A DNA stretch of 64,000 bases, taken from positions 1-64,000 of the IMG/VR virus record IMGVR_UViG_3300035661_000053. One strand, written 5' to 3'. A program made the position numbers and the translations under genes. Below the pieces are notes generated by a model. That model was given only the letters and a program-made list of their open reading frames with translations, was not told the DNA's origin and did no database searches. Below, piece after piece: positions 6,221 through 32,589 of this stretch (positions within the stretch are counted from its first letter, which is position 1; the number at the start of each line of letters is the position of its first letter). Origin of the DNA: a virus.

Positions 6221-6662
6221 GTGAGTACCCGTAAAAGATATATCCAGTAATGCCACACAAGAGAAGCTTTACAACCACCGGGGGAATGTGAAGGCGTTCA
6301 AGCTGAACAATTGTCCAATCAGTTATATCCCAATTCCCGTCTACTGAAGGGAGTGCATCGAAATCCCTTCCACGAAAAAAATCTATAAAGAAGTCATTCC
6401 ACAACCAACGTGATACACCAAGATACACGAAGGCAAAGCATAGACCCTTTACCGTGATGCCCGGGTATACCGCGACAATCATAACAACATGCACGATAGC
6501 TTTTTCAAAAATGTCGGCAACATGCCATACACCGATATTCTTTTTGTACAAAACAGGATTCGTAACCGTTGTACTTTCCATTGCGCGAATAAAACCTACA
6601 TCACGATAGGCTTTCACCCCATAAAAAATAATAACCAGAAGTGTCAAGATTGCTATTGTCAT
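6213..6662 (-). CDS. Multi-pass membrane protein
   Basis: Several hydrophobic segments. Confidence 0.65.
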   Translation of the reverse strand: MTIAILTLLVIIFYGVKAYRDVGFIRAMESTTVTNPVLYKKNIGVWHVADIFEKAIVHVVMIVAVYPGITVKGLCFAFVYLGVSRWLWNDFFIDFFRGRDFDALPSVDGNWDITDWTIVQLERLHIPPVVVKLLLCGITGYIFYGYSHV

Positions 6663-7027
6663 CGGTTACCTCGTATGATATATCCAACACAAAAACCCGC
6701 GACACCAAAAGCATAAGGACGGACTTTATCCCAAAAAGTAGGCTCGAGTGCATCAGCCTCCTTTTGCTTGAGAAGGAAGTTATCCTCGAGTAATTTTTGT
6801 TTCTGCTGGAGTAAATCAATCTCCTGATTCTGCTTCGCGATCACGAGATTTTTCAAGCTGTCAGCAGAAAAAAGATACTGGTAGTCCGAATAAATTTTTG
6901 TTATGAATTTAAGTTCTTCTTTGGTTACCTTGACTGAAGAGGAATCCAGCTTAGAAACCGATTGGCCGAAGCTTATAGTAGAAATTGATAAGACTATCAA
7001 TGTCAGTAGTATTACTGATGATTTCAT
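6659..7027 (-). CDS. Putative spanin-like protein
   Basis: Signal peptide MKSSVILL, coiled coil, C-terminal Gly-rich TM; overlaps the upstream gene. Confidence 0.55.
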   Translation of the reverse strand: MKSSVILLTLIVLSISTISFGQSVSKLDSSSVKVTKEELKFITKIYSDYQYLFSADSLKNLVIAKQNQEIDLLQQKQKLLEDNFLLKQKEADALEPTFWDKVRPYAFGVAGFCVGYIIRGNR

Positions 7028-7277
7028 TTCGTTGTTCTTTTTCTTTGTCAATTATTTTAATGGTATTCGTGTAGAAAAATACAGAGTCTCTTTTTCGCGC
7101 GATCAGGCTATCGATAGTTGCCATGTACTGCGTGTTCATTTTCACCTGCTTCTCGATTAAGGAAACACTCGTGGTAATGGACTTCATTGCTTCGTGTTGT
7201 TTGTATGCTAAAAAAATCAATAAAAATGCAACCACGATAATGGCTGCTTTTTCCAAATATTTAACCATACCCTTCAA
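6951..7277 (-). CDS. Putative inner-membrane spanin-like protein
   Basis: N-terminal TM and coiled coil; Rz/Rz1-like overlapping arrangement. Confidence 0.55.
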   Translation of the reverse strand: MKGMVKYLEKAAIIVVAFLLIFLAYKQHEAMKSITTSVSLIEKQVKMNTQYMATIDSLIARKRDSVFFYTNTIKIIDKEKEQRNEIISNTTDIDSLINFYYKLRPIGF

Positions 7278-7327
7278 ACCTTGTTTATTTATTGCTCAAA
7301 AATAACCCTATTCCCCCCTTAAAGCAA

Positions 7328-9775: not shown

Positions 9776-12700
9776 AATCCGGCTCCACGTTTCATTTCCT
9801 GTATCCCAATACCTGCTATTTCCCCGGCAGTATACTTGTCAATAATAAGTATAGGTCTAACAGGATTCTCGAGATGCTTCGTTAAATTCTTATTCATGTC
9901 TTTCAGTTCACTATGCAGCGCGCTAGTGTTGGCACTAAAATTCATGGCATAGAGATCAGTCTTGATACCACCACCAAACAAACCGCCGTTCGCGAAGCCG
10001 TCATTAATAGCCTGAAGTAAGGGTAAGTGTTTCTTTGTCTGCTGGGCATTAACAATAAATTCGTTGTCACTAAGCAGAACAAGGTTTTTATCATCCTTCT
10101 CACCACCAACACCCCGGAATAAACCCTTTGGCAAATAGCTTATGCCTTTCCCATTTACATTAAGACCGCCTTCAGCAAATTTGGGTGGTGTTTGAGAGGC
10201 TGCTATTGCCAGTTCCGTGGCACCTGTTGCACCAATGATAATAGACAAAGGAATATTGGGGGGAAGCATCGCTAAAGCTGACATCACGCCGATCGCGGTA
10301 TTGGTAACAATTTGTGCCATAGCGAGAGCATGGGAGATTTCCCAGTCCTTTTTCAAAGCAGCATGCTTCCTCTGTTCCGCTTCTTTATCAAGTTGCTGTT
10401 TACGTATTTCAAATTGTTGACGAACCCGCTCCTTTTGATTCTCCGTTGTCGCGAAACGCATCGCGGAGTTTTCCTCGTTCGTAAGAATTACTTCTTGAGC
10501 TTTCTTCCAAGTTTCAACCTCATCAGTAATCTTTTGCTTCTTCCATTCAAAATACGTGTTAAAAGCGGATGTAATTCTATCCAGAAAATCCTTTGTCGTG
10601 TTGAATTTGGAGAGCATACTTTTCTTGTCAACCTTATCCGTTTCCTTATCCTTGTCCTTTGACAAAGCTATAATTTGCGCGTTACGCGCAGCAGTATTCC
10701 TGTCATAAAGATTAGCACGTTTCGTTTCCTCCGGGCTCAAAGGGACACCACTATTGCCTTTTTCGTAGTCTTTTCTCTTCTTGAGAATATCCGCGATACT
10801 CGCCTCTTCTTCTTCTTGCTTTGCTCTTATATCAGCTATTTTTTTGTCATACTGCGCTCTAATAAGAGACTTCTCAGCCTCTATTTTTTCTGTAGCATTA
10901 AACAAATGCTTGTAATCCTGGGAGTCTTCACCCATCGATTCAACGAGTTTAGAAAGCCTATCAATATTTACCTCTGCTTCTATATCAGCCGCTTTTTGTT
11001 CTTCGACCGTGAACAGTTTATTAATTCCCGCCTGGCTGGTATTTTTCAGGTTCTCTAATTCTTTTGCTTTTTGTTCCGGGGTTGTGGCATAATTAGACAA
11101 TATCCTTTCCCGGAGTTTTTCTTTCTTATCCTCTAAAGACTCGTACGCTTTCATTATAGAGTCAGCACTCCCTGAAAGATTTGTTATTTCTGCTTCCAGA
11201 TCAGAAGTTTTCTTTTGCGTGGCAGCATTTTCTTTCAAGTCCTTCGTGAGCATATCATACAAAACTTCTATTTGTACAAAGGAAAAGCCATTCTTCCTAC
11301 CCTCATCAATGAGTTGTCTTATTCTTGCAGTGTGATCTTCTTTTGCCTCCCGATATTTATTCTGCATCTCGATCATTGTCTTCTGTTCGGTAGCCTTTTC
11401 CTCCGGAGTACCCGCGGAGTAAAAACGAATCTCGGCAGCACTAAGGTCTTCTTTCATGCGATTGACCATGTTATCATAAGGAAGCATTTGCAGCTTGAAA
11501 TTTTCTGCTTCTGCTTGCTTTAGCATTTGATCAATCTCATTGGCCTGTCTAAAACCAAAATCCCTATTTGTATTCGCGAGCGCACGTGCTTTGAATTTCT
11601 TCAGTTCTGCTATTTTTTCGAGAACCTTTTTAGAGTAATCCTGAACACCTTCCTTGAAAGTTTTTTCTATTTCTGTCTGGGGAGCGGTGAGCCGTTTAAT
11701 AAGCTGATCGCTATTTCCCAGAGAAGCCATAGAAGCACTCATTTCCATGAGAGTGGAAGCAAGGTGGTTATACTGCTCAGTCATGATAGAAGCTTGTAGC
11801 TTGAATTCTTTCAACTCCTTTGTCAACGGGTCATCGTTGTACTTGTCCTTTGGCACCTTATCCTCGTCATTCGGAACAGTTGGCTTCTCTGCTATCTTCA
11901 CTGAATTTACAAGAGCATTATTCACGGCGATTCTTTTAGACTCAAGCATAGTAACCTGTGCCAAGTCCTTGTTGTACCTGTCAATAATATCTTGCACGTA
12001 GTCAGTTTTTTCAAAGTCCCCAAGAGAACTGATGTCAACAAAATCTACACCGAAAGCTGATTTAATAGCCTCCTTGTACTTGTCCTCGTCAAGCTTACCT
12101 TCCTTCGTGCTATACACGCCACCTAGAAATTGCTTAAAGAGCGATATAATTCCTTTGCTGTTCTCATTATCAATCCTTTTACGAAGGCTTGTAGCGATAG
12201 CGGTTATTTGGTTTGTTACCTGCTCTGGGGTTGCATCAACAGGTATAGCATCAATGTTCTTAATAATTTCAGCATTTATTTCCTGCTGAGGCTTTATGAT
12301 ATTATCAAGTTTGTGTGACAAGTTGGAGTTACTCTCGAATATACCGTATGAGCGTTTGCTTTCACCAATGGCATCCTTGTTTGCTTTTGACTTTGCATAA
12401 GAACGAACGTCCTCAATAGCAAGATCAATCGCGAGACCCGACATTTGAGTCCGCAAATCGATAGCTGTCTGTTTGAGTGCTGCCATTCTTTCGTTAATAA
12501 TGAAAAGCAATCCCGAAGTATTACTTGAAGAGATACCCACGTTATCAATTTGCGCTGCAAGGTCAGGGAAAAGTCTTTTAAGCACATTCGTTTTTTCAAT
12601 GAGTGCAGACTTCGCGGTAATAGCAGCGTTATAAGAGTCTGCCAGATCATTTACCTTAACACGCTGATTCGAAATTTCATTACTGAGTTTCTTTAAAGCA

Positions 12701-15432
12701 TCCGTGTCCAAAGCTGCTGTGGACAAAGTCTTTGCTGAAAGTTTAGCCCTTTTATCCTCGAGGTCTTCAAGTACTTTTACCTCGGCATCATAAAGAGCTT
12801 TTCTTTCTTTAATAGACTGAATGTATTCTCCATCGACCTTTTGGCCTTTATCCCCGGATAGTGCAGCAGCTTGCCGCCTGTCACGTTCCATTGTCATAGC
12901 AATATCACGAGCGTACTCAAGTTGCTTTACCTGCTTCTCAGTTAATTCTGCTTCTTCCTTGTAGTAGTCTATTCTCTGTTTTATAGCATCGGCTGTTGAG
13001 GCTCGCGCTTTTTCTGCTGACTCCTCAGCCTTCTTATCACTCTCTTCCCAGAAGCTCTTCACAGCACTATACACCGTGAGAACACCCGTGAGCAGAGCGA
13101 GCGGGGAAGAAAGAAACATTGCCTTGAGATCAGCCATAAGAGCCTTACCAAAAGACAGCAACCCGTTAAAAGCAGACTGCGCGATAGCAGATAAGGATAT
13201 TTCTTTTGTCTGCATCATAACAGCCGTGGTAATTTCCTCTTGTTGCGCCTTTATTTTATTCAAAACAAGACTCCGTTGTTCCTCAACGAACGAGGCTTCA
13301 ACTTCTTTTGCCGCCTGTTCAGCAACAAGAGACCTTATGCTGCCCTCCCGGTTTGCCCGTTCAGCCAATTGATCGTCATACTTCCGAAGATTCTTTGCGC
13401 CTTTTTCTGTCATCAATGCAGTGGCCTCCCAGCTAAGCGTTCCACGCTCATTTAATGCCTGCGCCTCAGTCATCATCTCAATTTCTTCAGCAATCTGTCG
13501 CAGTTTTGAAATTCGTAATTCAATACCCGCTGCCTCAGTAGCATTACCTTCTTCTAAAAGAATTTCTCTCTCTGTGTCTAAAGCAAGAATGTCAACCTCA
13601 ATAGACTTGACAAATTCTTTCTTTACCGCCTTGCCTATTTCAGCATCAACAATTTGTTCCTGCAATGCAAACTCAGACATAAGCGCCGCGTTGCCTCTTA
13701 TACGTTCAGTAGCCTCCTGCGTGGCAAGTATAAGCTTTTCCTGCATGGCACGAATTTCAGCCTGAGTTGTTCCGACTTGCTGTTCGCCATCAACTAAAAG
13801 TATTTTCTGTCGCTCGACGATCATATTCTGAATAGCCCTTGCTTTTTGGTACAAGGTATTCTTACTTTGTAAAATAGCAAGGTGTTCCTTGTCAATAAAA
13901 AGTTGCTCTTTCATTGTTGTTGGTTTAAGAGTTTCCGCGATATTCTTTTTTATTTGATCGCGAATTTCTGTGGCTTCTTGTAGTTCTTTTTGAAGTTCTT
14001 TTCTCGTCTCTTCATTAGGCTTAAACACGTTTCTTGACAAGAGCCCATTACCACCTATGACATCGTTTTTGAATTGCGCGTTTGCCACGGCTTTATTCGC
14101 GGTAATAAGCAGCTGTCTTTGCCGAATAATCTCATCCACATTATCAGGATTCACACCCGGGATGCCACTATTCATCATACCTGCACGAGTTGGTGTTTGA
14201 CGACCCATGACACCATACATATCTCGTTTTGCCATGCTCTCGATTCTGCTGGACATGTTCGTGGCTTCTTTATTCAAAATGCCCATAGCTTTAGCATGCT
14301 GCATAATTTGAGCAGAGGCAATACCATGCGACTCAGCCCAATTGTCAATTGTATTTTTCATTAGCCTGTTTGACAAAGCTTTACCCGCGGTGAGCATTAG
14401 AAAAGCATTAAGAGAATTCATCATCAAAGAAATAGAATTGTTGACGCCACCAAAAACAGCGGACACCCCTGTGAATAAAGTTTTAATGGGGCTTAGCATA
14501 TGGGACACAAAATTGAGGGAAGTCTCAGAGGTGTGCTTTATCGTGTCAGCAATTTCAATAATTTCTTTCTTATGCTGCTGAACGTAATTGGTCGTCTCGA
14601 TCAAGAATTTCTTTACTTCAGGCATGTAGGTATCACCAACACCCGCCATAACCTGCTGCATGATGTCCCGAAGGTTCTGCATGCGTCCCTGGTAGGTTTC
14701 CATCTGCTTATCCATCATCCCCGCGAAACCTTTTTTCTCGATTATTCGAGGAAGCGCATCAAGCAAGTCCTCAATAGAGGCATCAATTTCCCGTCCCCCT
14801 TTTTTAGTCTTAACATGTAGCTCATCCATGAAATCTTGGTAAGTCACTAGAAGCGTTCTGAACATTCTGAGGGCAATACCCTTCCTTCCTACCGCTAAAG
14901 CCTGAAAAGCAGCCAGAGCCTCCTCCATTGGCTTTCCAGAAGCAGCAGCAAGGTCACCCAGAGACCTCAAGGTATCCAACGAGTACCTACCAACAGCCTG
15001 AAGCTGATTTCCTGCCTCAATAACCTGTGTAACCGAGAAAGGAGTGACCGCAGCGAACTTAACCATTTCCTCAAACCGTTCCCTCGCGAGTTCAGTGTCC
15101 TTGAGCATTACACCAAGAGTTGTCCGGTATTTTTCAAACAGCCCGGAATCATCAAGAGGTGCAGAGATCACGGCCTTAATTTGTGTTACCATGTACAGGA
15201 TACGCTCAAAGGCAATAATGTTAAGAGACCAACCCCTGATATTTGTCTTTATCTCATTTATAAATTTGTTTATTTCAGTGAGATCAGCCTTTGTCTGCGG
15301 GGGGACAACCATATCACGAAGGGCTGAAGCAGAAGTTTGTTTGAGTTCTGTTATTCCGGATTTTATTCTCGTGAAGGCTTGCTCAATATCCTTAATATCA
15401 GCAATGAAACGGACTCCATCCTGTACGGGCAT
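9772..15432 (-). CDS. Tape measure protein
   Basis: 1,886 aa, helical; KFAAVTPF, LGDLAAASG tape-measure domain; FAEGG C-terminal motif. Confidence 0.93.
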   Translation of the reverse strand: MPVQDGVRFIADIKDIEQAFTRIKSGITELKQTSASALRDMVVPPQTKADLTEINKFINEIKTNIRGWSLNIIAFERILYMVTQIKAVISAPLDDSGLFEKYRTTLGVMLKDTELARERFEEMVKFAAVTPFSVTQVIEAGNQLQAVGRYSLDTLRSLGDLAAASGKPMEEALAAFQALAVGRKGIALRMFRTLLVTYQDFMDELHVKTKKGGREIDASIEDLLDALPRIIEKKGFAGMMDKQMETYQGRMQNLRDIMQQVMAGVGDTYMPEVKKFLIETTNYVQQHKKEIIEIADTIKHTSETSLNFVSHMLSPIKTLFTGVSAVFGGVNNSISLMMNSLNAFLMLTAGKALSNRLMKNTIDNWAESHGIASAQIMQHAKAMGILNKEATNMSSRIESMAKRDMYGVMGRQTPTRAGMMNSGIPGVNPDNVDEIIRQRQLLITANKAVANAQFKNDVIGGNGLLSRNVFKPNEETRKELQKELQEATEIRDQIKKNIAETLKPTTMKEQLFIDKEHLAILQSKNTLYQKARAIQNMIVERQKILLVDGEQQVGTTQAEIRAMQEKLILATQEATERIRGNAALMSEFALQEQIVDAEIGKAVKKEFVKSIEVDILALDTEREILLEEGNATEAAGIELRISKLRQIAEEIEMMTEAQALNERGTLSWEATALMTEKGAKNLRKYDDQLAERANREGSIRSLVAEQAAKEVEASFVEEQRSLVLNKIKAQQEEITTAVMMQTKEISLSAIAQSAFNGLLSFGKALMADLKAMFLSSPLALLTGVLTVYSAVKSFWEESDKKAEESAEKARASTADAIKQRIDYYKEEAELTEKQVKQLEYARDIAMTMERDRRQAAALSGDKGQKVDGEYIQSIKERKALYDAEVKVLEDLEDKRAKLSAKTLSTAALDTDALKKLSNEISNQRVKVNDLADSYNAAITAKSALIEKTNVLKRLFPDLAAQIDNVGISSSNTSGLLFIINERMAALKQTAIDLRTQMSGLAIDLAIEDVRSYAKSKANKDAIGESKRSYGIFESNSNLSHKLDNIIKPQQEINAEIIKNIDAIPVDATPEQVTNQITAIATSLRKRIDNENSKGIISLFKQFLGGVYSTKEGKLDEDKYKEAIKSAFGVDFVDISSLGDFEKTDYVQDIIDRYNKDLAQVTMLESKRIAVNNALVNSVKIAEKPTVPNDEDKVPKDKYNDDPLTKELKEFKLQASIMTEQYNHLASTLMEMSASMASLGNSDQLIKRLTAPQTEIEKTFKEGVQDYSKKVLEKIAELKKFKARALANTNRDFGFRQANEIDQMLKQAEAENFKLQMLPYDNMVNRMKEDLSAAEIRFYSAGTPEEKATEQKTMIEMQNKYREAKEDHTARIRQLIDEGRKNGFSFVQIEVLYDMLTKDLKENAATQKKTSDLEAEITNLSGSADSIMKAYESLEDKKEKLRERILSNYATTPEQKAKELENLKNTSQAGINKLFTVEEQKAADIEAEVNIDRLSKLVESMGEDSQDYKHLFNATEKIEAEKSLIRAQYDKKIADIRAKQEEEEASIADILKKRKDYEKGNSGVPLSPEETKRANLYDRNTAARNAQIIALSKDKDKETDKVDKKSMLSKFNTTKDFLDRITSAFNTYFEWKKQKITDEVETWKKAQEVILTNEENSAMRFATTENQKERVRQQFEIRKQQLDKEAEQRKHAALKKDWEISHALAMAQIVTNTAIGVMSALAMLPPNIPLSIIIGATGATELAIAASQTPPKFAEGGLNVNGKGISYLPKGLFRGVGGEKDDKNLVLLSDNEFIVNAQQTKKHLPLLQAINDGFANGGLFGGGIKTDLYAMNFSANTSALHSELKDMNKNLTKHLENPVRPILIIDKYTAGEIAGIGIQEMKRGAGL

Positions 15433-20265: not shown

Positions 20266-21303
20266 TTAACTTTTAGAAGGAACCTTCGCCATATTTAGCA
20301 CTTCAGATACAGGATTCACTACCTCTGCCGCGGGCAATTGCTGAACAGCCACCGGGGCCAGGGCAGACCGTCCTTGCAGGAGATCACCAAATAAAGTGGC
20401 AAGAATACCCGTGCCTTTTGACCCGGTAGCTTTTATCTCGATAGATTGCGTGTTGTCTGAATTTAGATTTTCAACATTAAACATAAGCTGGGATAGTACA
20501 CTTATCTCGTTTGTTAAATTCTTGTCAAGAACGCCACCATCAATTTTCTCATTCAGGACTGCACGCATAACACGCTCCTTTTGGATATTAACAAGAACAC
20601 GCATACCAGTTTTAGTATCACTAAAATCAGTATCCAGCGAAAAATTAAAAACGCAAGATTGATTCACCACAAATTTAGGGCACCGTCCAGCAAGATAGCA
20701 AGTGTTGCAAACAATGAGGTCATCCTGTAATAACGGGTTGGCTTCTATCTTCCGCACCTCGATCGTCTGGGAACCTCCTTGACTTTTAAGCTCACGGGTA
20801 AGCATGTTGAAACAATGATTGTAGAATTGCTTCTTTGTCACGCATAAACCACAGTCACGGGGACAGTCTGTGCCATTTTTTTCATGCGTTGTGAATAGCC
20901 ATTGTCTTGCTTCTTCATTTGAAGGAGAAAGGAAGAAAGATTGTATTTCACCTTCTGTCTGTATCTGATAGAATTCTACTGGATTCACAACGAGTTTATC
21001 AACCTTCTTTTGTATGACAGTATCCTTCTTCCCCTCGTTACAAGAATGACAGAGCGTCTCCAAATTCGTGAGGTCATTTGTCCCTCCAGCTGAAAGCGGC
21101 ACAATGTGATCTATTACCAATTCTACCGTGGGATCAGTTTTTGGAGATGCACCGCAGCGTTTACAACGATGCTGATCTCTTTCAAGAATCTCGAACCTTA
21201 ACTTGTGAGTTATCTCATTACGAAGCTTTTTCTTCTCCTTCGTGGTTAATTTCTTGCTGTCTTCTTCTGCTTGCTTCTTTTTCTGCTCTTTAAGTGTTGC
21301 CAT
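20266..21303 (-). CDS. HNH endonuclease fused to a Cys-rich C-terminal domain
   Basis: RDQHRCKRCG..DHIVP..GG.N...NL.TLC..CN; then CPRDCGLC and CNTC...CPKF...C; likely start MATLK. Confidence 0.8.
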   Translation of the reverse strand: MATLKEQKKKQAEEDSKKLTTKEKKKLRNEITHKLRFEILERDQHRCKRCGASPKTDPTVELVIDHIVPLSAGGTNDLTNLETLCHSCNEGKKDTVIQKKVDKLVVNPVEFYQIQTEGEIQSFFLSPSNEEARQWLFTTHEKNGTDCPRDCGLCVTKKQFYNHCFNMLTRELKSQGGSQTIEVRKIEANPLLQDDLIVCNTCYLAGRCPKFVVNQSCVFNFSLDTDFSDTKTGMRVLVNIQKERVMRAVLNEKIDGGVLDKNLTNEISVLSQLMFNVENLNSDNTQSIEIKATGSKGTGILATLFGDLLQGRSALAPVAVQQLPAAEVVNPVSEVLNMAKVPSKS

Positions 21304-22282
21304 TTTCTTCTTTCTTTTTCTTTCGTCTACCACGTCGGCCTTTCGGCGCAACCTTTGGTGCTACACCGTGCATTACTTCAAGCTCATTTGGTGTACACAT
21401 GTAAAAAGGATTCGTTTTAATGAAATCGCGTTCTGCTTCAGTGAGCCACCATTGTCTATTCAGTGTTCTCCTGTTAAAATTTTTCTCATTCATAAGCCAA
21501 GCATTGATATTGAATTTATTCACCTGCCGAGTATTATCATCCATGAATTTGCCAAAGTCAACACCCCATTTATGGCAGGTACGAAATTGCTGTCTACGAA
21601 TAGCTTCCTTCTTCGTGTAATCAATCGTCTCAAAGAAACTCCCATTCCAGACATATGTGATGCCATATTTACCACCACTAAAATACGTGGTTGAATCAGC
21701 ACTAAACAAGGGAAATTTATCAAATGACACGAAGTTTGTCATAGCGAACCCATGAACCAATTTCCTGTACCTGTAGGAGAGATTGTATACTTGCTCAAAG
21801 TATCCAGTATCAGTTTTTGAATTGATACCACCTGATGCACCTATAAAGTTATAACGATCAAAGTATTCGTAAAGATTCTTGTATGGTAGGCTATAATCGT
21901 GAGTGACATAGCAGACTCGCTGACCTTCTTTCTCCAATTGCTCAAATTCTTTATTCCAATCATAGACCTGTTTGTCCCCCACAAGCAGGTTAACATCATA
22001 GTTAGCGACCCAAAAGAGTCTCCCAATATACTTGGATGCGAAATTGAGATAGTCTGAAAGATATTTGACATGGTTAATTTTCTCGTGATTATCTTGTGCT
22101 TTTGAGAACATGGTGAAAGCCCCAGAATCAAGAACAACGAGAGGAAACATATCGAGAACTTCGTCAAAGGGAACACCCTTGTCAATAATATAGTAATAGG
22201 ACATCAGGACTTTCTTGACTCCCGCGCTATAGCAATCATTCCTGATCTGCCTGTCTTCCACACCCGCGAATATTAATTCCAT
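21290..22282 (-). CDS. dpdA: DpdA-like 7-deazaguanine DNA transglycosylase (TGT fold)
   Basis: LDSGAF, HGFA, SADSTT motifs; clustered with que genes. Confidence 0.8.
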   Translation of the reverse strand: MELIFAGVEDRQIRNDCYSAGVKKVLMSYYYIIDKGVPFDEVLDMFPLVVLDSGAFTMFSKAQDNHEKINHVKYLSDYLNFASKYIGRLFWVANYDVNLLVGDKQVYDWNKEFEQLEKEGQRVCYVTHDYSLPYKNLYEYFDRYNFIGASGGINSKTDTGYFEQVYNLSYRYRKLVHGFAMTNFVSFDKFPLFSADSTTYFSGGKYGITYVWNGSFFETIDYTKKEAIRRQQFRTCHKWGVDFGKFMDDNTRQVNKFNINAWLMNEKNFNRRTLNRQWWLTEAERDFIKTNPFYMCTPNELEVMHGVAPKVAPKGRRGRRKKKKEENGNT

Positions 22283-22286
22283 TTTC

Positions 22287-23261
22287 TCACCCGTGACAAT
22301 CCATAGGATTTATAAGACGTTCGTACACATTTTTTGCTGAGAAATGATTCACCACCATTTCCAAACTAAGAAAGCCTGCCTCATCAGTCCTTTGAGCTTT
22401 ATAAAGATCAGCTTGAAGAATATCCGAGTACAGGAAATTCCGTGGAAACAGATCATGATAAGAACCAACATCTCGGCATAAAGGGATAGTCCCTGTTGCG
22501 ACAGCATCCATAACGGAAAGGCCAAAGGACTCACAAAAGGCTGTGCTCACGATAATCTCGCAAGTGGATGCAAGCTTCTGGTATTCCTCCGAAGTAAGTC
22601 CCACGTGTAACTCCATATTAGGATGTTCCTTTGCTAGAGTTTCCGCCACGGATAAGGGTATTCGTCTCGTGCAAACATGAAATTCAAAATCAGGAAATTC
22701 ACGCATTAGTTTTTGAAAATCAGGAAATCCTTTTACAGGATTGTTAATATCATTTCCTGCCCAAATAACCGTCTTGCTTCTTTTAATAGAGGCATTCTGA
22801 AAAGGAAGCAAGGGGCAACCAATAGACCTATATTGTGATTCATGCAAACCATAAGATAAAGCTGTTGAAGAAGTTGACACGAGCATCGGTGTACAAAGAG
22901 AATTTTGCTTATAGTACGCTGGAGCGTGCACATAATCTTGATAATCCTTTGACACGTGCACGTATATCTCAAAAGGAATTTCCCTATCAAGACCAATCAT
23001 TTGTTGGAAGGGCAATTGCATAGAATCCAAGAAAATTATTTTCTCGATGTTCTCATGCCCGATCATTTCTACTTTCCCACGCAATTCAAGCATTGATTTA
23101 TAACCATAATAAGCAAGGTTTTCAAACAACGTTGAGTTGCTCAAAACGGAGATAGGCTCCCCATAAAAAAGGACACGATTATCCGCGACAGCCTCAAGAC
23201 GTTCCTGAAAATCCTTGCTCCAAGAATCAGCAGTCTTATGCAACCTGTTTATTAAAATCAT
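22287..23261 (-). CDS. Glycosyltransferase, GT-B fold (GT4-like)
   Basis: KGF..., ESFGLSVMDAVATG (Ex7E/D) motif. Confidence 0.8.
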   Translation of the reverse strand: MILINRLHKTADSWSKDFQERLEAVADNRVLFYGEPISVLSNSTLFENLAYYGYKSMLELRGKVEMIGHENIEKIIFLDSMQLPFQQMIGLDREIPFEIYVHVSKDYQDYVHAPAYYKQNSLCTPMLVSTSSTALSYGLHESQYRSIGCPLLPFQNASIKRSKTVIWAGNDINNPVKGFPDFQKLMREFPDFEFHVCTRRIPLSVAETLAKEHPNMELHVGLTSEEYQKLASTCEIIVSTAFCESFGLSVMDAVATGTIPLCRDVGSYHDLFPRNFLYSDILQADLYKAQRTDEAGFLSLEMVVNHFSAKNVYERLINPMDCHG

Positions 23262-23398
23262 TCAGCCACCTCACCCACCCCGGCATTTGGCTCCAGGTAC
23301 TCTAAAGTAACATGGGGGTCACCATTGGAAGAACCACGTGCACGTATGAATTTTATCCTTTTACCTTCAAGTTTATCTTCTTTTTTCTCGTCCATGCG
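23258..23398 (-). CDS. Small hypothetical protein
   Basis: Fills the gap between queC and the glycosyltransferase with overlapping ends (MDEKKEDK...). Confidence 0.4.
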   Translation of the reverse strand, partial: RMDEKKEDKLEGKRIKFIRARGSSNGDPHVTLEYLEPNAGVGEVAE

Positions 23399-24140
23399 TA
23401 ATTTCTTTCGTAATAAATAGTCGTGTTTTCTTAGCAATAGCATCCTTTATGCGGTGCTGTCTTTTCTCGCTATACTTATTTAGGTTCTCCAAGTAAGTAC
23501 GCGCCGTGGTTGACTCAGCAGGATTCACCGCGAAATTTCCTGTAATATCATTGTTTGCCAGAGCAACAAATTTTCGAAAGCAAGCCGGGCAATTACCACA
23601 TTCAATAAAACCCGAGTTACTACGAACCGGGCTATAGCAAGAATGTGTACTCACGAGCGAAGCTATGCCAGACTTGCCATAATTTTCAATGTACCAATGA
23701 ACCATGTCTGTTTTGTCCATGTGCACGAAAGGAGACTCCACGATGATATTTTTCCCGGACAGACTTGTAAGAAGCGTGCTCATGTTCATCATAAATTCTT
23801 GTGTCCTGTCAGGGATACTCATTTCATCCTCCTGAACAATAAGAGCAATCATGTAGCTGTTTGCTGCCGGGTATTCACGAAGTGCCATACTCGTTGCAAC
23901 ATGGCAAAGATAAGAATTCCGAAGGGGGATTTCAGCGTCATTTTTTTCGAATGCCCCAATGTGCATGCCCGGGGCATAATGTATTTTTCCTACATGATTT
24001 GTCCTCATAATGGACTTCATCTCAGCTTCCTGGTACCTATGCCCAAGAGGAACGTATACCCGCATATCGGGTTTCAAGTAAGCAGAAGCAATAAAGGAGT
24101 CAAGACCACCACTATACAGTAGGACTTTCTTTGGCTTCAT
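23373..24140 (-). CDS. queC: 7-cyano-7-deazaguanine synthase QueC
   Basis: LYSGGLDS PP-loop, IPLRN, SCY...CGNCPAC zinc site; likely start MKPKK at 24140. Confidence 0.85.
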   Translation of the reverse strand: MKPKKVLLYSGGLDSFIASAYLKPDMRVYVPLGHRYQEAEMKSIMRTNHVGKIHYAPGMHIGAFEKNDAEIPLRNSYLCHVATSMALREYPAANSYMIALIVQEDEMSIPDRTQEFMMNMSTLLTSLSGKNIIVESPFVHMDKTDMVHWYIENYGKSGIASLVSTHSCYSPVRSNSGFIECGNCPACFRKFVALANNDITGNFAVNPAESTTARTYLENLNKYSEKRQHRIKDAIAKKTRLFITKEITHGREKRR

Positions 24141-24900
24141 AATAATCACTAACCTCCTTCCGCATACCTTTCCAATGCTCGTTAAAAAAAGGCTCATAGC
24201 AACCTATATGCCACGCGGTCGCCTGACCCAATTGCACCCGTTTATCCTCCGGTATACTCAAGAATAATTCCGTGTCATAACCACGTTCACCTTTTTTATA
24301 GGCTATGAATGACTCGTAGAGAGCTAAAAAGCAATCTCTTTTTATAATATACGTACCCGAGACACCATACGCCGGACCAACATGATCAAAACGAACCTTG
24401 CCATACATCTTAAGTGGAATGTCCTTCCTCAAAATAATGTCGGTACCATCGGGGTTTGAAAAAACCTTGTCCGTGTAATCCGGGAAGCCACGTGCATTCT
24501 CGACATCAACCGTGGATATGACTATCATATCAGGGGTACATTTTTTGTCACTATCCAATTTTTCCATTGCTTCGACTATTTTCTGAAAGTCATTTTGAGC
24601 GATCAAAACATCGTCATCAAGCACGAGAAAAACGTCATACCCCTCGTGCGACAGAGCCCATCGTGCTTTCGCCGCGGGCATGGAGACATCATGAGAAACA
24701 AGGTGCACGTCAATAAGGTGTTTGTTTCGTTTAGCAATTGCGAATTCCGTTTTGAAGAATTTCGCGAAATCCATCGAGTACGTGAGAATTTCCCACTCTA
24801 TACTTATGCTCGTCGTGTTCAACAAGAGATTCGTCATAACCTTTGAGAACATGGCAAAGCGATCCTCCCGAACCATCGTTAAAATTTTAGCTGTTTGCAT
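24112..24900 (-). CDS. Glycosyltransferase, GT-A fold (GT2-like)
   Basis: YDVFLVLDDDV DxD motif; GERGYD and WH motifs. Confidence 0.7.
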   Translation of the reverse strand: MQTAKILTMVREDRFAMFSKVMTNLLLNTTSISIEWEILTYSMDFAKFFKTEFAIAKRNKHLIDVHLVSHDVSMPAAKARWALSHEGYDVFLVLDDDVLIAQNDFQKIVEAMEKLDSDKKCTPDMIVISTVDVENARGFPDYTDKVFSNPDGTDIILRKDIPLKMYGKVRFDHVGPAYGVSGTYIIKRDCFLALYESFIAYKKGERGYDTELFLSIPEDKRVQLGQATAWHIGCYEPFFNEHWKGMRKEVSDYYEAKESPTV

Positions 24901-25931
24901 GTATTAATTTTCCTTAAAAATTCCAGTAAAGCAGGTTTATCAGAATAATGCTGAAGGAGTGATGCTTCAACACTTGCCCCGTCTTCTTCCCTCGTTACTT
25001 CCTTGTACATTTTTCTGTCAAAACCATGCAATTTTTTATTCGCGCCCATCAAGTAAAGAGTATCACATTTGAAGCAGTGATAGCAAAAATCCATGAAGTC
25101 TTCACTATTACAATGAGCGAAGTCTACCTTCATCTTCTTGAGGGTCTCCAGAATAGTCAAAGAATCCATGTGACTTATTGGAGAAGCAACATGCTTACCC
25201 GCGTGGGAAAGAGAATTATAATAAGCTTTCATATCAAAGCCTTGAACAAGAATTAGATTATCCCAAACCTCCTTTTCATAGCCAACAAGAATATTTTGTC
25301 CGTTATAAAAAATAGGATACGCAAATTCAACGAGCACTTCTTTATAATATCTGTCATCCCCAAGAGCCCTTCTAAGTAATGAAAACATACTCCCCTCTAT
25401 AACAAAGTCACTCCTTCTTCTATCAGTTACCCCGAAAAACTCCGCGTACATAACTCTTATGCTTTCTGGTACGTTTGAATTGAGGTAAGAAATCATGGTG
25501 CTATCCTTACCACCAGAATACATTACCAAAAAAGGATAGACACTTTTTGTAGAGTCCTCAATGTTCAAACCATGATAAGAGACCTCCTTAAAAATTATTT
25601 TTTTATCCCGATTTTGTAATATTTCCAAATAGCTAATAACAACAGAAAACATTCTTTTATTCAGAAAATAAGGAACCTCAATCTCTGCCTCATCATAAAC
25701 GTAAAGGCAATACAGTAGAACATAATTGAGTTTATTCAAAAAAGGAGAGGTCTTGTGGTAAATAGCCTCTATTGATTTGAAGCCATCCTCATGCGAAACT
25801 ATAACACGAGTCAACTCTGGATTAGAGCCGAAGTCCAAGCGTACGTGCTTCAAAGTTTTATCCGAAATTATGTAACAAATATTAGTGTAATATACTGTTT
25901 TTATTTTATACAAAAAATACTCTTTGGGCAT
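24879..25931 (-). CDS. Second, divergent QueC-like PP-loop ATPase with N-terminal extension
   Basis: VMYSGGKDST PP-loop; HC...CYHCFKC zinc motif; start uncertain because the ORF-track start overlaps a terminator. Confidence 0.7.
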   Translation of the reverse strand: MPKEYFLYKIKTVYYTNICYIISDKTLKHVRLDFGSNPELTRVIVSHEDGFKSIEAIYHKTSPFLNKLNYVLLYCLYVYDEAEIEVPYFLNKRMFSVVISYLEILQNRDKKIIFKEVSYHGLNIEDSTKSVYPFLVMYSGGKDSTMISYLNSNVPESIRVMYAEFFGVTDRRRSDFVIEGSMFSLLRRALGDDRYYKEVLVEFAYPIFYNGQNILVGYEKEVWDNLILVQGFDMKAYYNSLSHAGKHVASPISHMDSLTILETLKKMKVDFAHCNSEDFMDFCYHCFKCDTLYLMGANKKLHGFDRKMYKEVTREEDGASVEASLLQHYSDKPALLEFLRKINTCKQLKF

Positions 25932-25932
25932 T

Positions 25933-25958
25933 AAAAAACCCGCCATAACAGCGGGTTT
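25933..25958 (-). terminator. Intrinsic terminator after the small basic peptide gene
   Basis: AAACCCGC-tgttatg-GCGGGTTTTTT. Confidence 0.8.
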
Positions 25959-25987
25959 GAGAAGAAGCATAGGAAATTTTGGGAGGC

Positions 25988-26119
25988 TTATTTGCCGCGT
26001 GCCCTTTTACCTACTTTAGGATTGGACTTGCTATTTACTTTGCCGCCCCGTGCCGGAGTGGCTTTGCCTTTCGCGGCAATCATCTTTCCTGCCGGTTTGC
26101 CTTTCGCGGAGTTACCCAT
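25988..26119 (-). CDS. 43-aa Lys/Gly/Ala-rich peptide, absent from the ORF track
   Basis: MGNSAKGKPAGKMIAAKGKATPARGGKVNSKSNPKVGKRARGK; GAAAGG RBS, TAATTTTG motif at 26166-26173, own terminator. Confidence 0.8.
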   Translation of the reverse strand: MGNSAKGKPAGKMIAAKGKATPARGGKVNSKSNPKVGKRARGK

Positions 26120-26182
26120 TTTCGTGACCTTTCATGTTAGAGATTAAGTTATTTTTTGCACTGCACAAAATTACCATGAACG

Positions 26183-26938
26183 TTACTTTAAATCAAGTGT
26201 TTTGTGCATCTGAGTGGATAATCGAACATTTGGAAAATCTTCAAGAAACAACAATAATTTATTTATCAATGTTTTATCTTTCTGAAAAACGTAGTAATCG
26301 GGTTGTATAAAGATTAGAGTATTCAATTTGAAGCCTTTACAAGTTGCAAAAATATTTCGCAAATCCCTTAAATCAGCATCAGTACCAACAACGAATTTCA
26401 ATTGCACATTAAAAGTCATATCAGGAGATAACCAAAATTCTACAACCTCCTTCGCGCGAGCAAGAGATGCATCTATTTTAGCCGAACCTTTTGTAGCTGA
26501 AGAAAGCTTTGGTGATACAGAAAAGAAAACATTATCATTAAGCATATCGAATAAAACTTTCCTGTCCGGGAAGGGATACCCGGAGGTCTCAACAGAAATA
26601 TAATCATAGCCATTCTTATGAAGCTTGCCAATCAGCCAATGTACTGATTCTGCTTGTTCCATAGGTTCACCCCCAGTTATGCAAATCCAAGCGTTCTTAT
26701 TCCAGCCCTCAACTATTCTTTTGTAAACATCAGCACAGAGCACTTTGAATTTTTTATTTTGTCTCCAAGAATTTTTAGTGTCACACCAAGCACAACCAAC
26801 AGTGCAACCATTCGTTCTGACAAACCTTGTCAAGAAACCACTTAAGAGACCTTCACCTTGTATAGAATCAAAAATTTCTTGCACATACAGCGAAGCAATA
26901 TTGCTATTAATCCCACTACGTCTCCTTTTCACGATCAT
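26183..26938 (-). CDS. queE: 7-carboxy-7-deazaguanine synthase QueE (radical SAM)
   Basis: EIFDSIQGEG, CTVGCAWCDT, ITGGEP, VETSG, SPK, QMHK. Confidence 0.92.
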   Translation of the reverse strand: MIVKRRRSGINSNIASLYVQEIFDSIQGEGLLSGFLTRFVRTNGCTVGCAWCDTKNSWRQNKKFKVLCADVYKRIVEGWNKNAWICITGGEPMEQAESVHWLIGKLHKNGYDYISVETSGYPFPDRKVLFDMLNDNVFFSVSPKLSSATKGSAKIDASLARAKEVVEFWLSPDMTFNVQLKFVVGTDADLRDLRNIFATCKGFKLNTLIFIQPDYYVFQKDKTLINKLLLFLEDFPNVRLSTQMHKTLDLK

Positions 26939-26953
26939 CCTGGTATCTACATT

Positions 26954-27511
26954 TTATTGAAAAAATTGTTTGTTACTTTGTAAAAGATTAAGAGCCTCCG
27001 CCTTATCAATGTCACCAAGCATACAAGATGTTGTCGTGACACTCCCGATACTTTTAACACCCCGTATTGTCATGCAAAGATGCTCCGCTGAACACACCAC
27101 GAAAATACCTTTTGGCTGAAGGCGTTTCATTATGTCTTCTGCTATATCCGCGGTAAGGTTCTCTTGCACCTGTGGTTTAGCAGAGTGGTATCCTATTATT
27201 CTCGCGATTTTGGAAAGACCTACAATGGTGCGATTACTGCAATGATATACAACACCAACCTTGCCAAAAAAGGGCAACAAATGATGCGCGCAATAAGAAG
27301 TGAAATTTATATTCGATACTGCCACATACCCATCCTTACCCTCGAACGTGGTTATCTTGGGTGGGTTCTTATACAGCCCGGAGAAAAGCTCCAGGTACAT
27401 TTTAGCAACCCTTTTTGGTGTGTCTTTCGTGTGCCCGTCAACAGGTAATTGAAGCCAAGCAAGCAGATCACCAATTATTTTCTCCCCTTCAGCTATATTT
27501 GGCTTTTTCAT
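26954..27511 (-). CDS. folE: GTP cyclohydrolase I
   Basis: TPKRVAKMY, CAHHLLPF, GLSKIAR, QE, HLCMTIRG. Confidence 0.95.
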   Translation of the reverse strand: MKKPNIAEGEKIIGDLLAWLQLPVDGHTKDTPKRVAKMYLELFSGLYKNPPKITTFEGKDGYVAVSNINFTSYCAHHLLPFFGKVGVVYHCSNRTIVGLSKIARIIGYHSAKPQVQENLTADIAEDIMKRLQPKGIFVVCSAEHLCMTIRGVKSIGSVTTTSCMLGDIDKAEALNLLQSNKQFFQ

Positions 27512-27513
27512 TT

Positions 27514-27771
27514 TTAATCCAAGAAGCTGAAGCTTGCTTTGTTATGGTCATTAATAATAAAAGTATGATCTTTTGAAATTCTCGACGGTATACGGCTATT
27601 GAAGAACTTGAAAGTGTTTGTAGCCTTATCATAACTTATGAGTTTACTGTTATGTAAATTATAGAAATTATAAGTGCCACCTACCTTCATTTCCCGTCCA
27701 TGAATAGAAGCCGTTGTTTGGAAGCTTTCCTTTTGCTTTCCTGATGAGCGATTCGCCCTTGAGCCACCCAT
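27514..27771 (-). CDS. 85-aa basic protein starting MGGSRANRSSG
   Basis: ATG at 27771 lies 1 nt after the stop of 27773-28858, implying translational coupling. Confidence 0.7.
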   Translation of the reverse strand: MGGSRANRSSGKQKESFQTTASIHGREMKVGGTYNFYNLHNSKLISYDKATNTFKFFNSRIPSRISKDHTFIINDHNKASFSFLD

Positions 27772-27772
27772 G

Positions 27773-28858
27773 TTATTTGATTCCTTTCTTTGCCAATTCT
27801 TTTCTAAAATTAGCGGCGTTTTCCATAAAGATGTCATCACTCAAATAAAATTGATCTGTCGAGTATCTACTTTCCTTCACGCCCCAGATCAAACGGCGGG
27901 AGGATATAACAGGTATATAAGAGTTCATGTACAAGGCGTTCTTGTCAATCGCGTGATACTGCACGATACGACTAACTGTAGAGGCACCAACGACAATTAT
28001 CTTAACACTGGGGTTCAGCAAAGACCTGATCAGCTTGAATTGTTTCACCGCGTAATCATGGTAAACTTCTTGACGTGCCATTTGAATTGGAAAATAGACA
28101 TGGGAAAAACCCGTCTTGTTAATCCAATTCGCGAAAGCTTTTGCATCACTCTCCCAAAGATACAAAAAACAAGGTATTGTTGGGAAACCATTATCAACCA
28201 AATCCTTGATAAACTTATAACTAAGGAGCCTATTCTGAACAGTTGAGCAAGCAGGTTGATTAAAGAAAAAGCTTACCGTGGGAGACATAACATATTCAAA
28301 TCCCTTCTCCCTAAAAGGCTTTGTCCAATCCCTTTGCAAGTACGCGTAAGTAGGGCTTGCAATGTTCATACCCTCGTTATTATAGACACCAAGATACTGC
28401 TCATTACTTTGAAAGACTTCTTTGCCGAATAACCAACTAAGCAAAGATTTATCATCATCTGACATGAGCAACCCTAAAGAGCATTGACGTGACTTTGCAA
28501 GATTCGTCAATCGTTTCTCCATACCCATTGAAAGCTTTGACAAAGGAAAGGTGAGTACTTTTTCGTGCGCGTCAATTTTCTGGTGGGTCACGAAAGATAC
28601 CTTTGGAAAGTCCACGGGTATTTCTGCAAGCTTGCCTAACCGGGGTGCACGATACTTTTCAATGTCAGGGAACATGGTTGCTATCGCGTAAGGGTTATCA
28701 GGAAAGAATTGTTTCGCATCCGCATGCTCGAAAGGTGCTTTAACAACAACTGTTTTTTCACAGTGCTTCTTATAATTGCAAGTAGAGCAATAAAAGTTCT
28801 CATCCTCAAGAGAAAAGTATTTTTCAGGAGAAATGATCATTTTTCTATCTTTAGCCAT
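27773..28858 (-). CDS. DUF4417-like, possibly TGT-fold protein with N-terminal Cys cluster
   Basis: CSTCNYKKHC; YVMSPTVSFFFNQP resembles the DUF4417 SPDFS.Y.D.P motif; G.PTIP and IIVVG; assignment from memory. Confidence 0.5.
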   Translation of the reverse strand: MAKDRKMIISPEKYFSLEDENFYCSTCNYKKHCEKTVVVKAPFEHADAKQFFPDNPYAIATMFPDIEKYRAPRLGKLAEIPVDFPKVSFVTHQKIDAHEKVLTFPLSKLSMGMEKRLTNLAKSRQCSLGLLMSDDDKSLLSWLFGKEVFQSNEQYLGVYNNEGMNIASPTYAYLQRDWTKPFREKGFEYVMSPTVSFFFNQPACSTVQNRLLSYKFIKDLVDNGFPTIPCFLYLWESDAKAFANWINKTGFSHVYFPIQMARQEVYHDYAVKQFKLIRSLLNPSVKIIVVGASTVSRIVQYHAIDKNALYMNSYIPVISSRRLIWGVKESRYSTDQFYLSDDIFMENAANFRKELAKKGIK

Positions 28859-28872
28859 AAAAGTTCCTTAGA

Positions 28873-29310
28873 TTATTCTTCATAACGTGCGCTACTCGTG
28901 GGAGTCTCGCACCATTCTACAAATTTTACTTTCGCAAAGCCATTGAATTTTTCTTTCAAAATTTGAAAACATAGCTTAGCAAGATTCTCCGCAGTGGGTG
29001 TTTCCTCAACACGCAAGATATTCTGAAAGACACCCGCGTGAGATAAAAGCATATTCAATCTTTCATCATCCTTGCACAAAATTAATTTATGATCAAATGT
29101 TTCCTCGATACTCTCCTTCAGGAAAGCTTTCACGGTGCCATAATCAAGAACCATACCCTCCATAGCTGTGCCTTTCATAATAGGTGAGGGTGTGCCTTCC
29201 AGGGCTATCGTGATACGAGCAGTATGACCATGTATACCCCTGCATCTACCATTATGCAGATGCAGAGCATGGCCATAGTCAACGGTTATCGTTTTCGTTA
29301 TCGTTGTCAT
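28873..29310 (-). CDS. queD: 6-carboxytetrahydropterin synthase QueD
   Basis: GHALH..GRC.GIHGH, FDH, PTAENLA, ETPTS. Confidence 0.93.
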   Translation of the reverse strand: MTTITKTITVDYGHALHLHNGRCRGIHGHTARITIALEGTPSPIMKGTAMEGMVLDYGTVKAFLKESIEETFDHKLILCKDDERLNMLLSHAGVFQNILRVEETPTAENLAKLCFQILKEKFNGFAKVKFVEWCETPTSSARYEE

Positions 29311-29572
29311 TCGTAGGTTCTTTGTTTATTCGTTTAATAATTGACACTAATTGCGCGTTTACTTCTTTTGGCCCCGGGGTTATTTTACCAAACCATTCTA
29401 TCCTGCCATAAAGTAAAAACAACTCAAGCATTTTATCGTCATCCAAAGTAAGCAGAGACAAAGACTCGTCATCCATCATGCCTATGACACCTGTCATAAT
29501 ATCATCATTGTCCATTTTGGCAATAGCATGATCGCCTACTTTTAAGTATTTTCGAAAATACCGTTCATCCAT
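29279..29572 (-). CDS. Hypothetical protein, possible Sm-like/SH3 barrel
   Basis: G.HAIAKMDNDDIMTGVIGMMDDESLSL pattern. Confidence 0.45.
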   Translation of the reverse strand: MDERYFRKYLKVGDHAIAKMDNDDIMTGVIGMMDDESLSLLTLDDDKMLELFLLYGRIEWFGKITPGPKEVNAQLVSIIKRINKEPTNDNDNENDNR

Positions 29573-29856
29573 TAGGATAGCCTGCAAGTGAAGATAATTG
29601 CTGTCCTTATGTCCCCTGAGATAGATACCTCCGTGAAACCGATTCGGGTGTTTATCGTTTTAGCCTTTTGACCGCATAAACCACCTGCTATAGCGATAGC
29701 TTTAACCGTTTGGTTTATTGACTGAAGACCTATTGCTGTTAGTGTTATGCACTTGAAGTTGTTGAATTCTGAAAAAATTGCTATAGCCAACTCTTTCGCG
29801 TTCGTGCTTCCCGCGACGCGCATTTCTTTTATTACTTCTTCTTTAACGTCTGACAT
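29572..29856 (-). CDS. spoVS: SpoVS family protein
   Basis: MRVAGST..., AIG..SINQTVKAIAIA, F.EV.I.G..RTAI. Confidence 0.85.
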   Translation of the reverse strand: MSDVKEEVIKEMRVAGSTNAKELAIAIFSEFNNFKCITLTAIGLQSINQTVKAIAIAGGLCGQKAKTINTRIGFTEVSISGDIRTAIIFTCRLS

Positions 29857-32514: not shown

Positions 32515-32589
32515 GAAAATTTCTCCGAATTTGTTTGTAGTGAATTTTAGTACCTCAAATATAAGAATATTGAGGCAAATAATCAAAAG

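Follow-up and report, generated by a model that had tools for sequence, protein, structure and literature searches.

A phage 7-deazaguanine operon with an additional QueC-like enzyme, a TGT-like barrel and Met-Gly proteins: hints of base-tagged proteins in a virus

The DNA analysed here, called the window throughout, consists of the first 64 kb (positions 1 to 64,000) of a 72,277-base uncultured virus record, IMG/VR IMGVR_UViG_3300035661_000053. From 20266 to 29310 every gene lies on the minus strand, and this block holds QueD, FolE and QueE, a QueC and a DpdA-type DNA transglycosylase (Table 1). Four further genes of the block are the subject of the present work: a 350-aa enzyme with hallmarks of QueC, a 361-aa protein whose predicted barrel resembles tRNA-guanine transglycosylase (TGT), and two small basic proteins of 85 and 43 aa that begin with Met-Gly. 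It is put forward, as a tentative reading somewhat short of probable, that they include a deazaguanylation module like Cap9, Cap10 and CdnD of the type IV cyclic oligonucleotide-based antiphage signaling system (CBASS), placed inside a phage operon for DNA modification. Statements on published systems refer to the available parts of the papers concerned.

FolE, QueD, QueE and DpdA stand in a single block both in the window and in a related viral contig (L002), and in a related metagenome contig (L003) as far as the contig end. Judged from its genes, the window block forms the central part of a phage operon that modifies DNA with 7-deazaguanine. A preliminary description of this DNA had listed the genes and their coordinates, and all of its open reading frames (ORFs) were found as given, on the minus strand. 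Its dpdA is confirmed by the PHROG match. Its queC, described as canonical, is a QueC by the Pfam match but a divergent one, reaching 44.9 bits with TIGR00364 against a cut-off of 150; the nearest solved chain, B. subtilis QueC, is found at E 0.0033. The GT-B-like protein of the block has two further matches below cut-off, to Pfam GT1 (E 1.9e-4) and NCBIfam IagA/BgsA (E 3.6e-9).

Table 1. Genes and features of the 7-deazaguanine block in the window, and selected genes of the two related loci
Locus	Feature	Position	Strand	Remarks
Window	QueD (6-carboxytetrahydropterin, CPH4, synthase)	28873..29310	-	phrog_2389 E 2.8e-27; C-x3-HGH; first gene of the block; syntenic in L002 and L003
Window	361-aa TIM-barrel protein (predicted), orphan	27773..28858	-	TGT/DpdA-like by predicted fold; matches no family
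Window	85-aa basic protein, MGGS start	27514..27771	-	coupled to the barrel gene; matches no family
Window	FolE (GTP cyclohydrolase I)	26954..27511	-	Pfam PF01227 E 4.9e-52
Window	QueE (7-carboxy-7-deazaguanine synthase, radical SAM)	26183..26938	-	phrog_2076 E 3.8e-33; Pfam Fer4_12 E 1.3e-7
Window	43-aa very basic peptide, MGNS start	25988..26119	-	lineage-specific insertion, judged by sequence; matches no family
Window	intrinsic-terminator-like hairpin	25933..25958	-	between the 43-aa gene and the ATG at 25931
Window	350-aa orphan QueC-superfamily enzyme	24879..25931	-	PP-loop, QueC-type four-Cys site and extra N-terminal domain
Window	GT-A-like protein (weak)	24112..24900	-	Pfam GT2 E 0.0058, below cut-off; no PHROG
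Window	divergent QueC	23373..24197	-	Pfam QueC E 2.4e-16; phrog_1550 E 2.1e-19; 255 aa if the start is 24140
Window	GT-B glycosyltransferase-like protein	22287..23261	-	phrog_2170 E 1.2e-7
Window	DpdA-type DNA transglycosylase	21290..22282	-	phrog_887 E 3.7e-27; 47% identity to the L002 counterpart
Window	HNH-domain protein	20266..21351	-	Pfam HNH E 3.6e-12; end of the block; syntenic in L002
L002	113-aa protein	10903..11244		phrog_17812 (function unknown); LxxxHRH
L002	glycosyltransferase-like (two GT-B-like)	11244..13143
L002	S-adenosylmethionine (SAM) methyltransferase	13140..13709
L003	barrel homologue	6521..7480
L003	glycosyltransferase-like (GT-A-like)	8364..9248
L003	HAD-like protein	10903..11265
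L003	glycosyltransferase-like (truncated ORF, weakly like the window GT-A)	11262..11915

The 350-aa enzyme carries a PP-loop, YSGGKDS, and a C-x8-C-x2-C-x2-C site near its C-terminus. According to the QueC-family preprint, SGGxDS and C(x)8CxxCxxC are the two hallmarks of QueC, and YxQxHxxE, VPxRN and YPDC make up the canonical QueC pocket. In an exhaustive phmmer search at E <=1e-3, 14 proteins including the query were detected, the 13 others at 26-32% identity. The alignment contained 12 homologues, to which the L003 protein was added later; P0015 (571 aa, E 4.9e-4, matching in 7 short stretches) was left out. Over the 13-14 rows, G141, D143 and S144 of the PP-loop are invariant and S139 and K142 are kept in >=90%; at the zinc site C274 and C283 are invariant and C286 and C289 are kept in >=90%, with a first gap that differs among homologues. 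Further conserved positions appear as E..P, G.EKE.W, S250 and C...C-Y-x-C-x2-C. None of the three pocket motifs is present in the family consensus.

No Pfam, PHROG, PADLOC or NCBIfam family contains the enzyme, the sole hint being a PP-loop match at E 0.08, and the QueC models of Pfam, TIGRFAM and PADLOC do not match it. A word-indexed search returned the enzyme itself only. When the 14-row profile was aligned by hhalign with the QueC of the same window, a match of 77% was obtained (E 2e-5, 99 columns), spanning the half of the protein with the substrate pocket and the zinc site, not the PP-loop.

An AlphaFold2 model of the enzyme (14 rows, pLDDT 70.6, pTM 0.71) was compared by VIA-align with 48,161 Protein Data Bank (PDB) representatives. 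Cap9, from the Cap9-CdnD complex (9nto_B), was aligned over 150 of 181 residues at rmsd 3.6 and Z 9.8, a score within 1 Z of those of 3k32, LarE, TilS and ThiI; B. subtilis QueC (3bl5) reached Z 8.7 with 161 of 195 residues aligned. In the BFVD library of viral structures a phage QueC ranks first (E 1.3e-4, target TM 0.52), and further phage QueCs occupy ranks 2, 9 and 29. The roughly 125 extra residues at the N-terminus form a separate alpha/beta domain in the model, with weak RNase-H-like matches (Z ~5). A Foldseek search of the PDB returned nothing at E <=1e-3; its top rows are retroviral RNase H domains at TM <0.2, probably driven by this N-terminal domain. Motifs, profile alignment and predicted fold agree, as the preliminary description had proposed, that the 350-aa protein is a divergent member of the QueC superfamily; by their defining sequence features it is neither a canonical QueC nor a Cap9 or QatC.

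In-frame ATG codons other than the one at 25931 are found at 25946, in the loop of the hairpin, and at 25970. The 363-aa reading from 25970 was dropped because the hairpin would then fall within coding sequence. A single contig of depth 5 in run X4 has base 25929 changed, which turns the start ATG at 25931 into ATA; with this variant, the starts at 25946 and 25970 stay possible. Strain counts per gene, here and below, are taken from the 40 of 55 differences listed. They give 18 differences for the enzyme (10 synonymous, 8 non-synonymous) and 13 for QueE (11 synonymous, 2 non-synonymous).

The 361-aa barrel protein likewise belongs to no family in Pfam, PHROG, PADLOC or NCBIfam. Its one detected homologue lies in L003, at 29-33% identity; a word-indexed search returned the query and P0017, and a profile search of PDB sequences returned maltose-binding protein fusions only, at E >0.2. 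The AlphaFold2 model was built from 2 rows and has a pLDDT of 44.4, only the residues from about 220 onward being reasonable. With this weak model, Foldseek gave TGT for almost every one of the top 50 rows (best E 8.5e-4), with DpdA at rank 12, and VIA-align placed arcTGT first (Z 9.6-10.1 over 215-224 residues), followed by DpdA (7ui4; Z 8.4-8.5), QTRT2 (Z 8.1) and bacterial TGT (Z 7.9). The scores of further TIM barrels lie at Z 7-8.6, for the most part from shorter aligned stretches. The best 50 rows of these fold searches do not include Cap10, which does not amount to its exclusion. ESM Atlas look-alikes of the barrel (feature score 0.96) gave TM 0.59-0.71 to clusters with PF14386 in 23% of their members, and the Atlas model gave TM 0.55 to TGT clusters. 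The 361-aa protein is thus modelled as a TIM barrel, for which TGT/DpdA is the best but unproven assignment. The name DUF4417-like, used for it previously, corresponds to the Atlas look-alikes only: the Pfam model (PF14386) matches neither the barrel nor its L003 homologue at E <=10, and a six-frame search of the whole record with it gave 0 matches.

All six listed strain differences in the barrel gene are synonymous, indicating purifying selection. Both known members of the family also keep a CxxC-x5/6-C cluster at the N-terminus (residues 24-33) and the Cys of NQPxCSTV; this conserved cluster may be a metal site.

Directly after the barrel gene comes the gene for the 85-aa protein. Its ATG lies 1 nt past the barrel TAA (a TAA-n-ATG junction) with AAAGGAA upstream, which upholds the translational coupling suggested earlier, and its stop lies 2 nt ahead of the FolE ATG. 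The product starts with MGGS and has a pI of 10.1. A co-fold of this protein with the barrel (2-row alignment, run without controls) scored 0.00 against a mark of 0.32, a result that is uninformative either way.

Scans of viral, metagenome and genome contigs for relatives of the cluster yielded L002 and L003 only. Against a phage collection, megablast with 21000-29500 found nothing, and tblastn found nothing for the 363-aa reading of the enzyme, P0012, or the 361-aa, 43-aa and 85-aa proteins. Eleven loci with a distant DpdA (L005-L015) contain neither orphan family. L002 is a record of 26,208 bases whose proteins are 30-59% identical to those of the window; its gene order is QueD, FolE, QueE, enzyme homologue, 113-aa protein, two GT-B-like proteins, SAM methyltransferase, DpdA and HNH protein. 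The order in L003 is QueD, barrel homologue, 104-aa protein, FolE, GT-A-like protein, QueE, enzyme homologue, HAD-like protein and, at the contig end, a truncated ORF weakly like the GT-A protein of the window.

Gene order, synteny and co-variation in these loci were, like motifs and fold class above, observed directly. In all three the enzyme gene is found 3' of QueE, and in two (L002 and L003) it overlaps QueE by a 4-nt stop/start. The barrel gene sits between QueD and FolE in the window and in L003, and in both cases a small basic Met-Gly protein is coupled after it, through the 1-nt gap before MGGS in the window and by overlap before MGSN in L003. The 104-aa partner in L003 begins at a TAATG shared with the barrel homologue, with in-frame stops just upstream; apart from the N-terminus, no similarity to the 85-aa protein can be detected. 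L002 contains neither a barrel nor a small Met-Gly protein, and no Pfam QueC at E <=1 in its 26,208 bases. Over these two loci QueC of the Pfam type, present in the window and absent from L002, co-varies with the barrel module, and the 350-aa enzyme does not. The 113-aa protein of L002, encoded directly after the enzyme homologue, has the LxxxHRH motif; in the 2023 phage paper this change from the QueD signature marks DpdL, in phages that have FolE, QueD, QueE and DpdA without QueC.

The 43-aa peptide is extremely basic, with a pI of 12, 13 Lys and Arg and not one acidic residue, and begins with MGNS. An AAAGG ribosome-binding site lies 8 nt 5' of its ATG, and 3' of the ORF lies the hairpin 25958-25933, with a 9-bp stem, a 5-nt loop, a T-run and -13.5 kcal/mol. 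The 71-nt stretch containing the hairpin has a z of -1.57, and a promoter and terminator scan, no richer in hits than shuffled sequence, did not list it. GC content is 52% in the ORF against 35-36% in the flanking genes. Gene callers call the ORF on 4 contigs, and it has 0 of the strain differences listed. A chance frame was considered, the opposite strand being open as well, but this was dropped, as ribosome-binding site, terminator and gene calls speak for a real gene. On sequence grounds the gene is a later, lineage-specific insertion that has a ribosome-binding site and a terminator of its own. A second copy of the 32 nt at 25927-25958, differing by one mismatch, stands on an otherwise unrelated 1503-base contig from the same metagenome runs, whose flanks are unlike the window.

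Published acceptor motifs are MGGS in the CD-NTases (cGAS/DncV-like nucleotidyltransferases) of type IV CBASS, such as CdnD, and MGTS in QatB, with Gly2 as the acceptor. The N-termini MGGS, MGNS and MGSN fit these, the first two in line with the preliminary description, with the Met presumably removed. In the window, L002, L004 and L003 (about 118 kb, both strands), MG[GTSN][SN] begins 5 ATG frames of at least 20 aa; 3 of these are the small proteins of the clusters, the remaining two being a frame of 25 aa and a Met inside a longer ORF. This rarity is suggestive, but the pattern is post hoc and the loci are three. Met-Gly starts over 14 sources number 16 of 468. The window also encodes, at 49190-49564 and distant from the deazaguanine block, a 124-aa Lys/Gly-rich Met-Gly protein of no Pfam family.

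How these parts may act together can be proposed from known chemistry. QueC adenylates the carboxylate of 7-carboxy-7-deazaguanine (CDG) and then joins it to ammonia; with Cap9 the Gly2 amine of CdnD takes the place of ammonia, and Cap10, a barrel of the TGT fold, holds the modified N-terminus of CdnD. For the viral cluster we infer substrate, conjugation and binding, together with everything downstream of them. CDG is the product of QueD, FolE and QueE. In a first module the 350-aa enzyme would adenylate its carboxylate and pass it to an amine. In a second, the TGT/DpdA-type TIM barrel and the coupled small basic Met-Gly-Gly-Ser protein would correspond to the pair of Cap10 and CdnD: the Met would be taken off, the Gly2 amine of the 85-aa protein would be linked to CDG as an amide by one of the two QueC-like enzymes, and the barrel would bind the deazaguanylated N-terminus. 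The 43-aa MGNS peptide, as a later insertion, may be a second acceptor.

Several observations weigh against this module. For the enzyme, neither the QatC models of PADLOC and NCBIfam nor Cap9-type models give a match, and other PP-loop folds tie with Cap9 and QueC: MJ0690 (3k32) at Z 10.5, LarE at Z 9.7 and TilS at Z 9.3, so that the fold alone indicates only a PP-loop ATPase. The barrel rests on a poor model (pLDDT 44.4) with other TIM barrels within about 1 Z, and hhalign pairs it with the DpdA of the same phage at only 0.7%. For the 85-aa protein, upstream starts used by some gene callers give a reading of 107 or 108 aa that overlaps the barrel gene, and its 3 listed strain differences, in 2 codons, are all non-synonymous; these are Glu to Pro and Arg to Ser, the same as the cluster variants, and leave the N-terminus unaltered. 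The L003 partner falls in a 90% cluster in which 1 of 3 members, on a 1009-base contig, is called without the Met-Gly N-terminus. Met-Gly starts are common among crude genes, with 6 of 90 in the window and 4 of 30 and 1 of 19 in the other two loci, and the longer pattern was shaped to include MGGS and MGTS. The comparison covers three loci, the 11 further enzyme homologues having no readable neighbourhood.

The 43-aa peptide and its terminator are present in one of the three loci and absent from L002 and L003. Its position upstream of the enzyme, as described previously, holds for the window and not beside either readable homologue, where the enzyme gene overlaps the QueE stop. The expectation of conserved small Met-Gly ORFs beside homologues is therefore borne out for the barrel partner, in 2 of 2, and not for the 43-aa peptide or in L002. 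Moreover, L002 keeps the enzyme with neither barrel nor partner, which means that the conserved job of the enzyme cannot depend on them; present in all three loci and partnerless in L002, the enzyme probably has as its core job a CDG amide of another kind. Glycosyltransferase-like genes, found in the block of all three loci, point to small-molecule or DNA chemistry and suggest a sugar-bearing deazaguanine derivative.

The foremost alternative, only a little less likely than the module, is that no protein is modified. The 350-aa enzyme would be an amide synthetase converting CDG, either free or in DNA, to 7-amido-7-deazaguanine (ADG) or an N-substituted amide; the glycosyltransferases would decorate the product, the barrel would serve as another DNA transglycosylase, acting on a second base and accompanied by a small accessory subunit, and the Met-Gly starts would be coincidental. 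The L002 locus, where the partnerless enzyme has a DpdL-like protein, a methyltransferase and a pair of GT-B-like proteins for neighbours, agrees with this, as do the glycosyltransferase-like genes of all three loci, the frequency of Met-Gly starts and the place of DpdA (7ui4) among the best fold matches of the barrel. The use of a base carboxylate as an attachment point also has a precedent: CmoY ligates glycine in an ATP-dependent manner to a base carboxylate in phage DNA, giving the glycine amide of 5-carboxymethylcytosine (5cxmC). Coincidence, however, has to explain why two otherwise unalike proteins after the barrel both start with MG[GS][SN], why a third such start stands ahead of the 350-aa enzyme when the pattern is rare elsewhere, and why barrel and partner come and go together.

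A further possibility, nested within the Cap9/Cap10-like module and unlikely in itself, is that the barrel or DpdA would insert the peptidyl-deazaguanine base into phage DNA by exchange, giving a genome covalently decorated with small basic proteins. The authors of the type IV CBASS study, who did not find the target, noted that the free N9 of the base could permit integration into nucleic acid; the known end point of the viral operon, through DpdA, is DNA, and the putative acceptors are strongly basic (pI 10 to 12). On the other hand, the catalytic and base-reading Asp of the barrel cannot be placed because the model is so weak (pLDDT 44), and in the Cap10 structure the surface for nucleic acid has been remodelled away. 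A decoy role in counter-defence, with the Met-Gly proteins mimicking the N-termini of CdnD or QatB and, together with the barrel, soaking up or misdirecting Cap9/Cap10 or QatC of the host, would fit the shared N-terminal motifs and the self-contained look of the 43-aa gene with a ribosome-binding site and a terminator to itself, but is highly improbable, as these genes lie within, and are coupled to, the CDG pathway that the phage itself encodes and the literature searched describes no phage-encoded Cap9/Cap10-like genes.

Outside the cluster, a SpoVS-like protein (29572-29856, Pfam E 1.2e-14) is encoded just upstream of the block and is kept in L002 and L003. Farther upstream lie a PD-(D/E)XK nuclease (30402-31211), an ATP-dependent DNA ligase-like protein (31408-32586) and a RecA-like protein (34745-36058). 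The adjoining ORFs 16164-17318, 17345-17590 and 17603-19207 each match the same 328-aa protein of L002 (16840-17826), which suggests a duplicated or split structural gene. Rfam gave a single sub-threshold match of 15.5 bits against a gathering score of 105. The 4 runs listed as carrying this sequence include no RNA data set.

Protein deazaguanylation is known so far only from bacterial defence, in type IV CBASS and probably in Qat. The present cluster, which hints at base-tagged proteins in a virus, combines an enzyme like QueC with a barrel resembling TGT and a protein starting MGGS, in a viral operon that makes CDG and modifies DNA, and so offers a compact test case for the open question of the downstream target of deazaguanylation. 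If the peptidyl base did reach DNA, proteins would be tied to the genome through a 7-amido-7-deazaguanine linker, and DNA would be named as the kind of target sought for Cap10-type transfer in type IV CBASS. Even if no protein is modified, two uncharacterised families are defined in phage 7-deazaguanine pathways, and the glycosyltransferases of the three loci point to a deazaguanine derivative outside the eight described in the 2023 phage paper.

Compared with known systems, the 350-aa enzyme shares with canonical QueC the SGGxDS and C-x8-C-x2-C-x2-C motifs and a gene beside queE, and resembles it in predicted fold and by the hhalign profile match; it differs in matching no Pfam or TIGRFAM model, in the absence of the pocket motifs and in its roughly 125 extra N-terminal residues. 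Like QatC, it combines a QueC core having remodelled pocket motifs with an added N-terminal part, and its Atlas model gives TM 0.51-0.53 to the QatC cluster; the partner of QatC, QatB, also has a Met-Gly-x-Ser start. The zinc motif, however, has the spacing of canonical QueC and not the C-x19-CGxCxxRR of QatC, and against the QatABCD system stand the unmatched QatC models and a neighbourhood of que and dpd genes with neither QatA nor QatD.

The phage Dpd pathways described to date (DpdA1-4, QueC*, Gat-QueC, DpdL, DpdM and DpdN) are similar in joining FolE, QueD, QueE and QueC with DpdA in a block, and L002 resembles the DpdL phages in having a DpdL-type LxxxHRH protein and no QueC. In the covered parts of those reports, the orphan families, the glycosyltransferases and the Met-Gly partners do not appear. 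The literature searched describes neither orphan family, nor a phage Cap9/Cap10-like module, nor a glycosylated deazaguanine, within a coverage that did not extend to supplementary tables, where relatives may be listed. The CmoX/CmoY system of 5-carboxymethylcytosine parallels the reading in which no protein is modified, as the carboxylate of a DNA base is there extended by an ATP-dependent amide ligase; base, enzyme fold and pathway are all different.

In composition the cluster resembles type IV CBASS, where one operon likewise has a QueC-like ATP-dependent enzyme, a barrel (of the TGT fold in Cap10, TGT-like by prediction in the phage) and an MGGS partner; in both the chemistry would start from CDG. 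Cap9, at about 185 aa, is a minimal QueC with the canonical pocket intact, whereas the viral enzyme has 350 aa, an extra N-terminal domain and no pocket motifs. The partner in type IV CBASS is a CD-NTase, of which there is none among the annotated neighbours of the 350-aa enzyme; in the virus it would be an 85-aa basic protein. Finally, the carrier is a phage rather than a defence island, and the phage operon, which also holds DpdA and glycosyltransferases, makes its own CDG.

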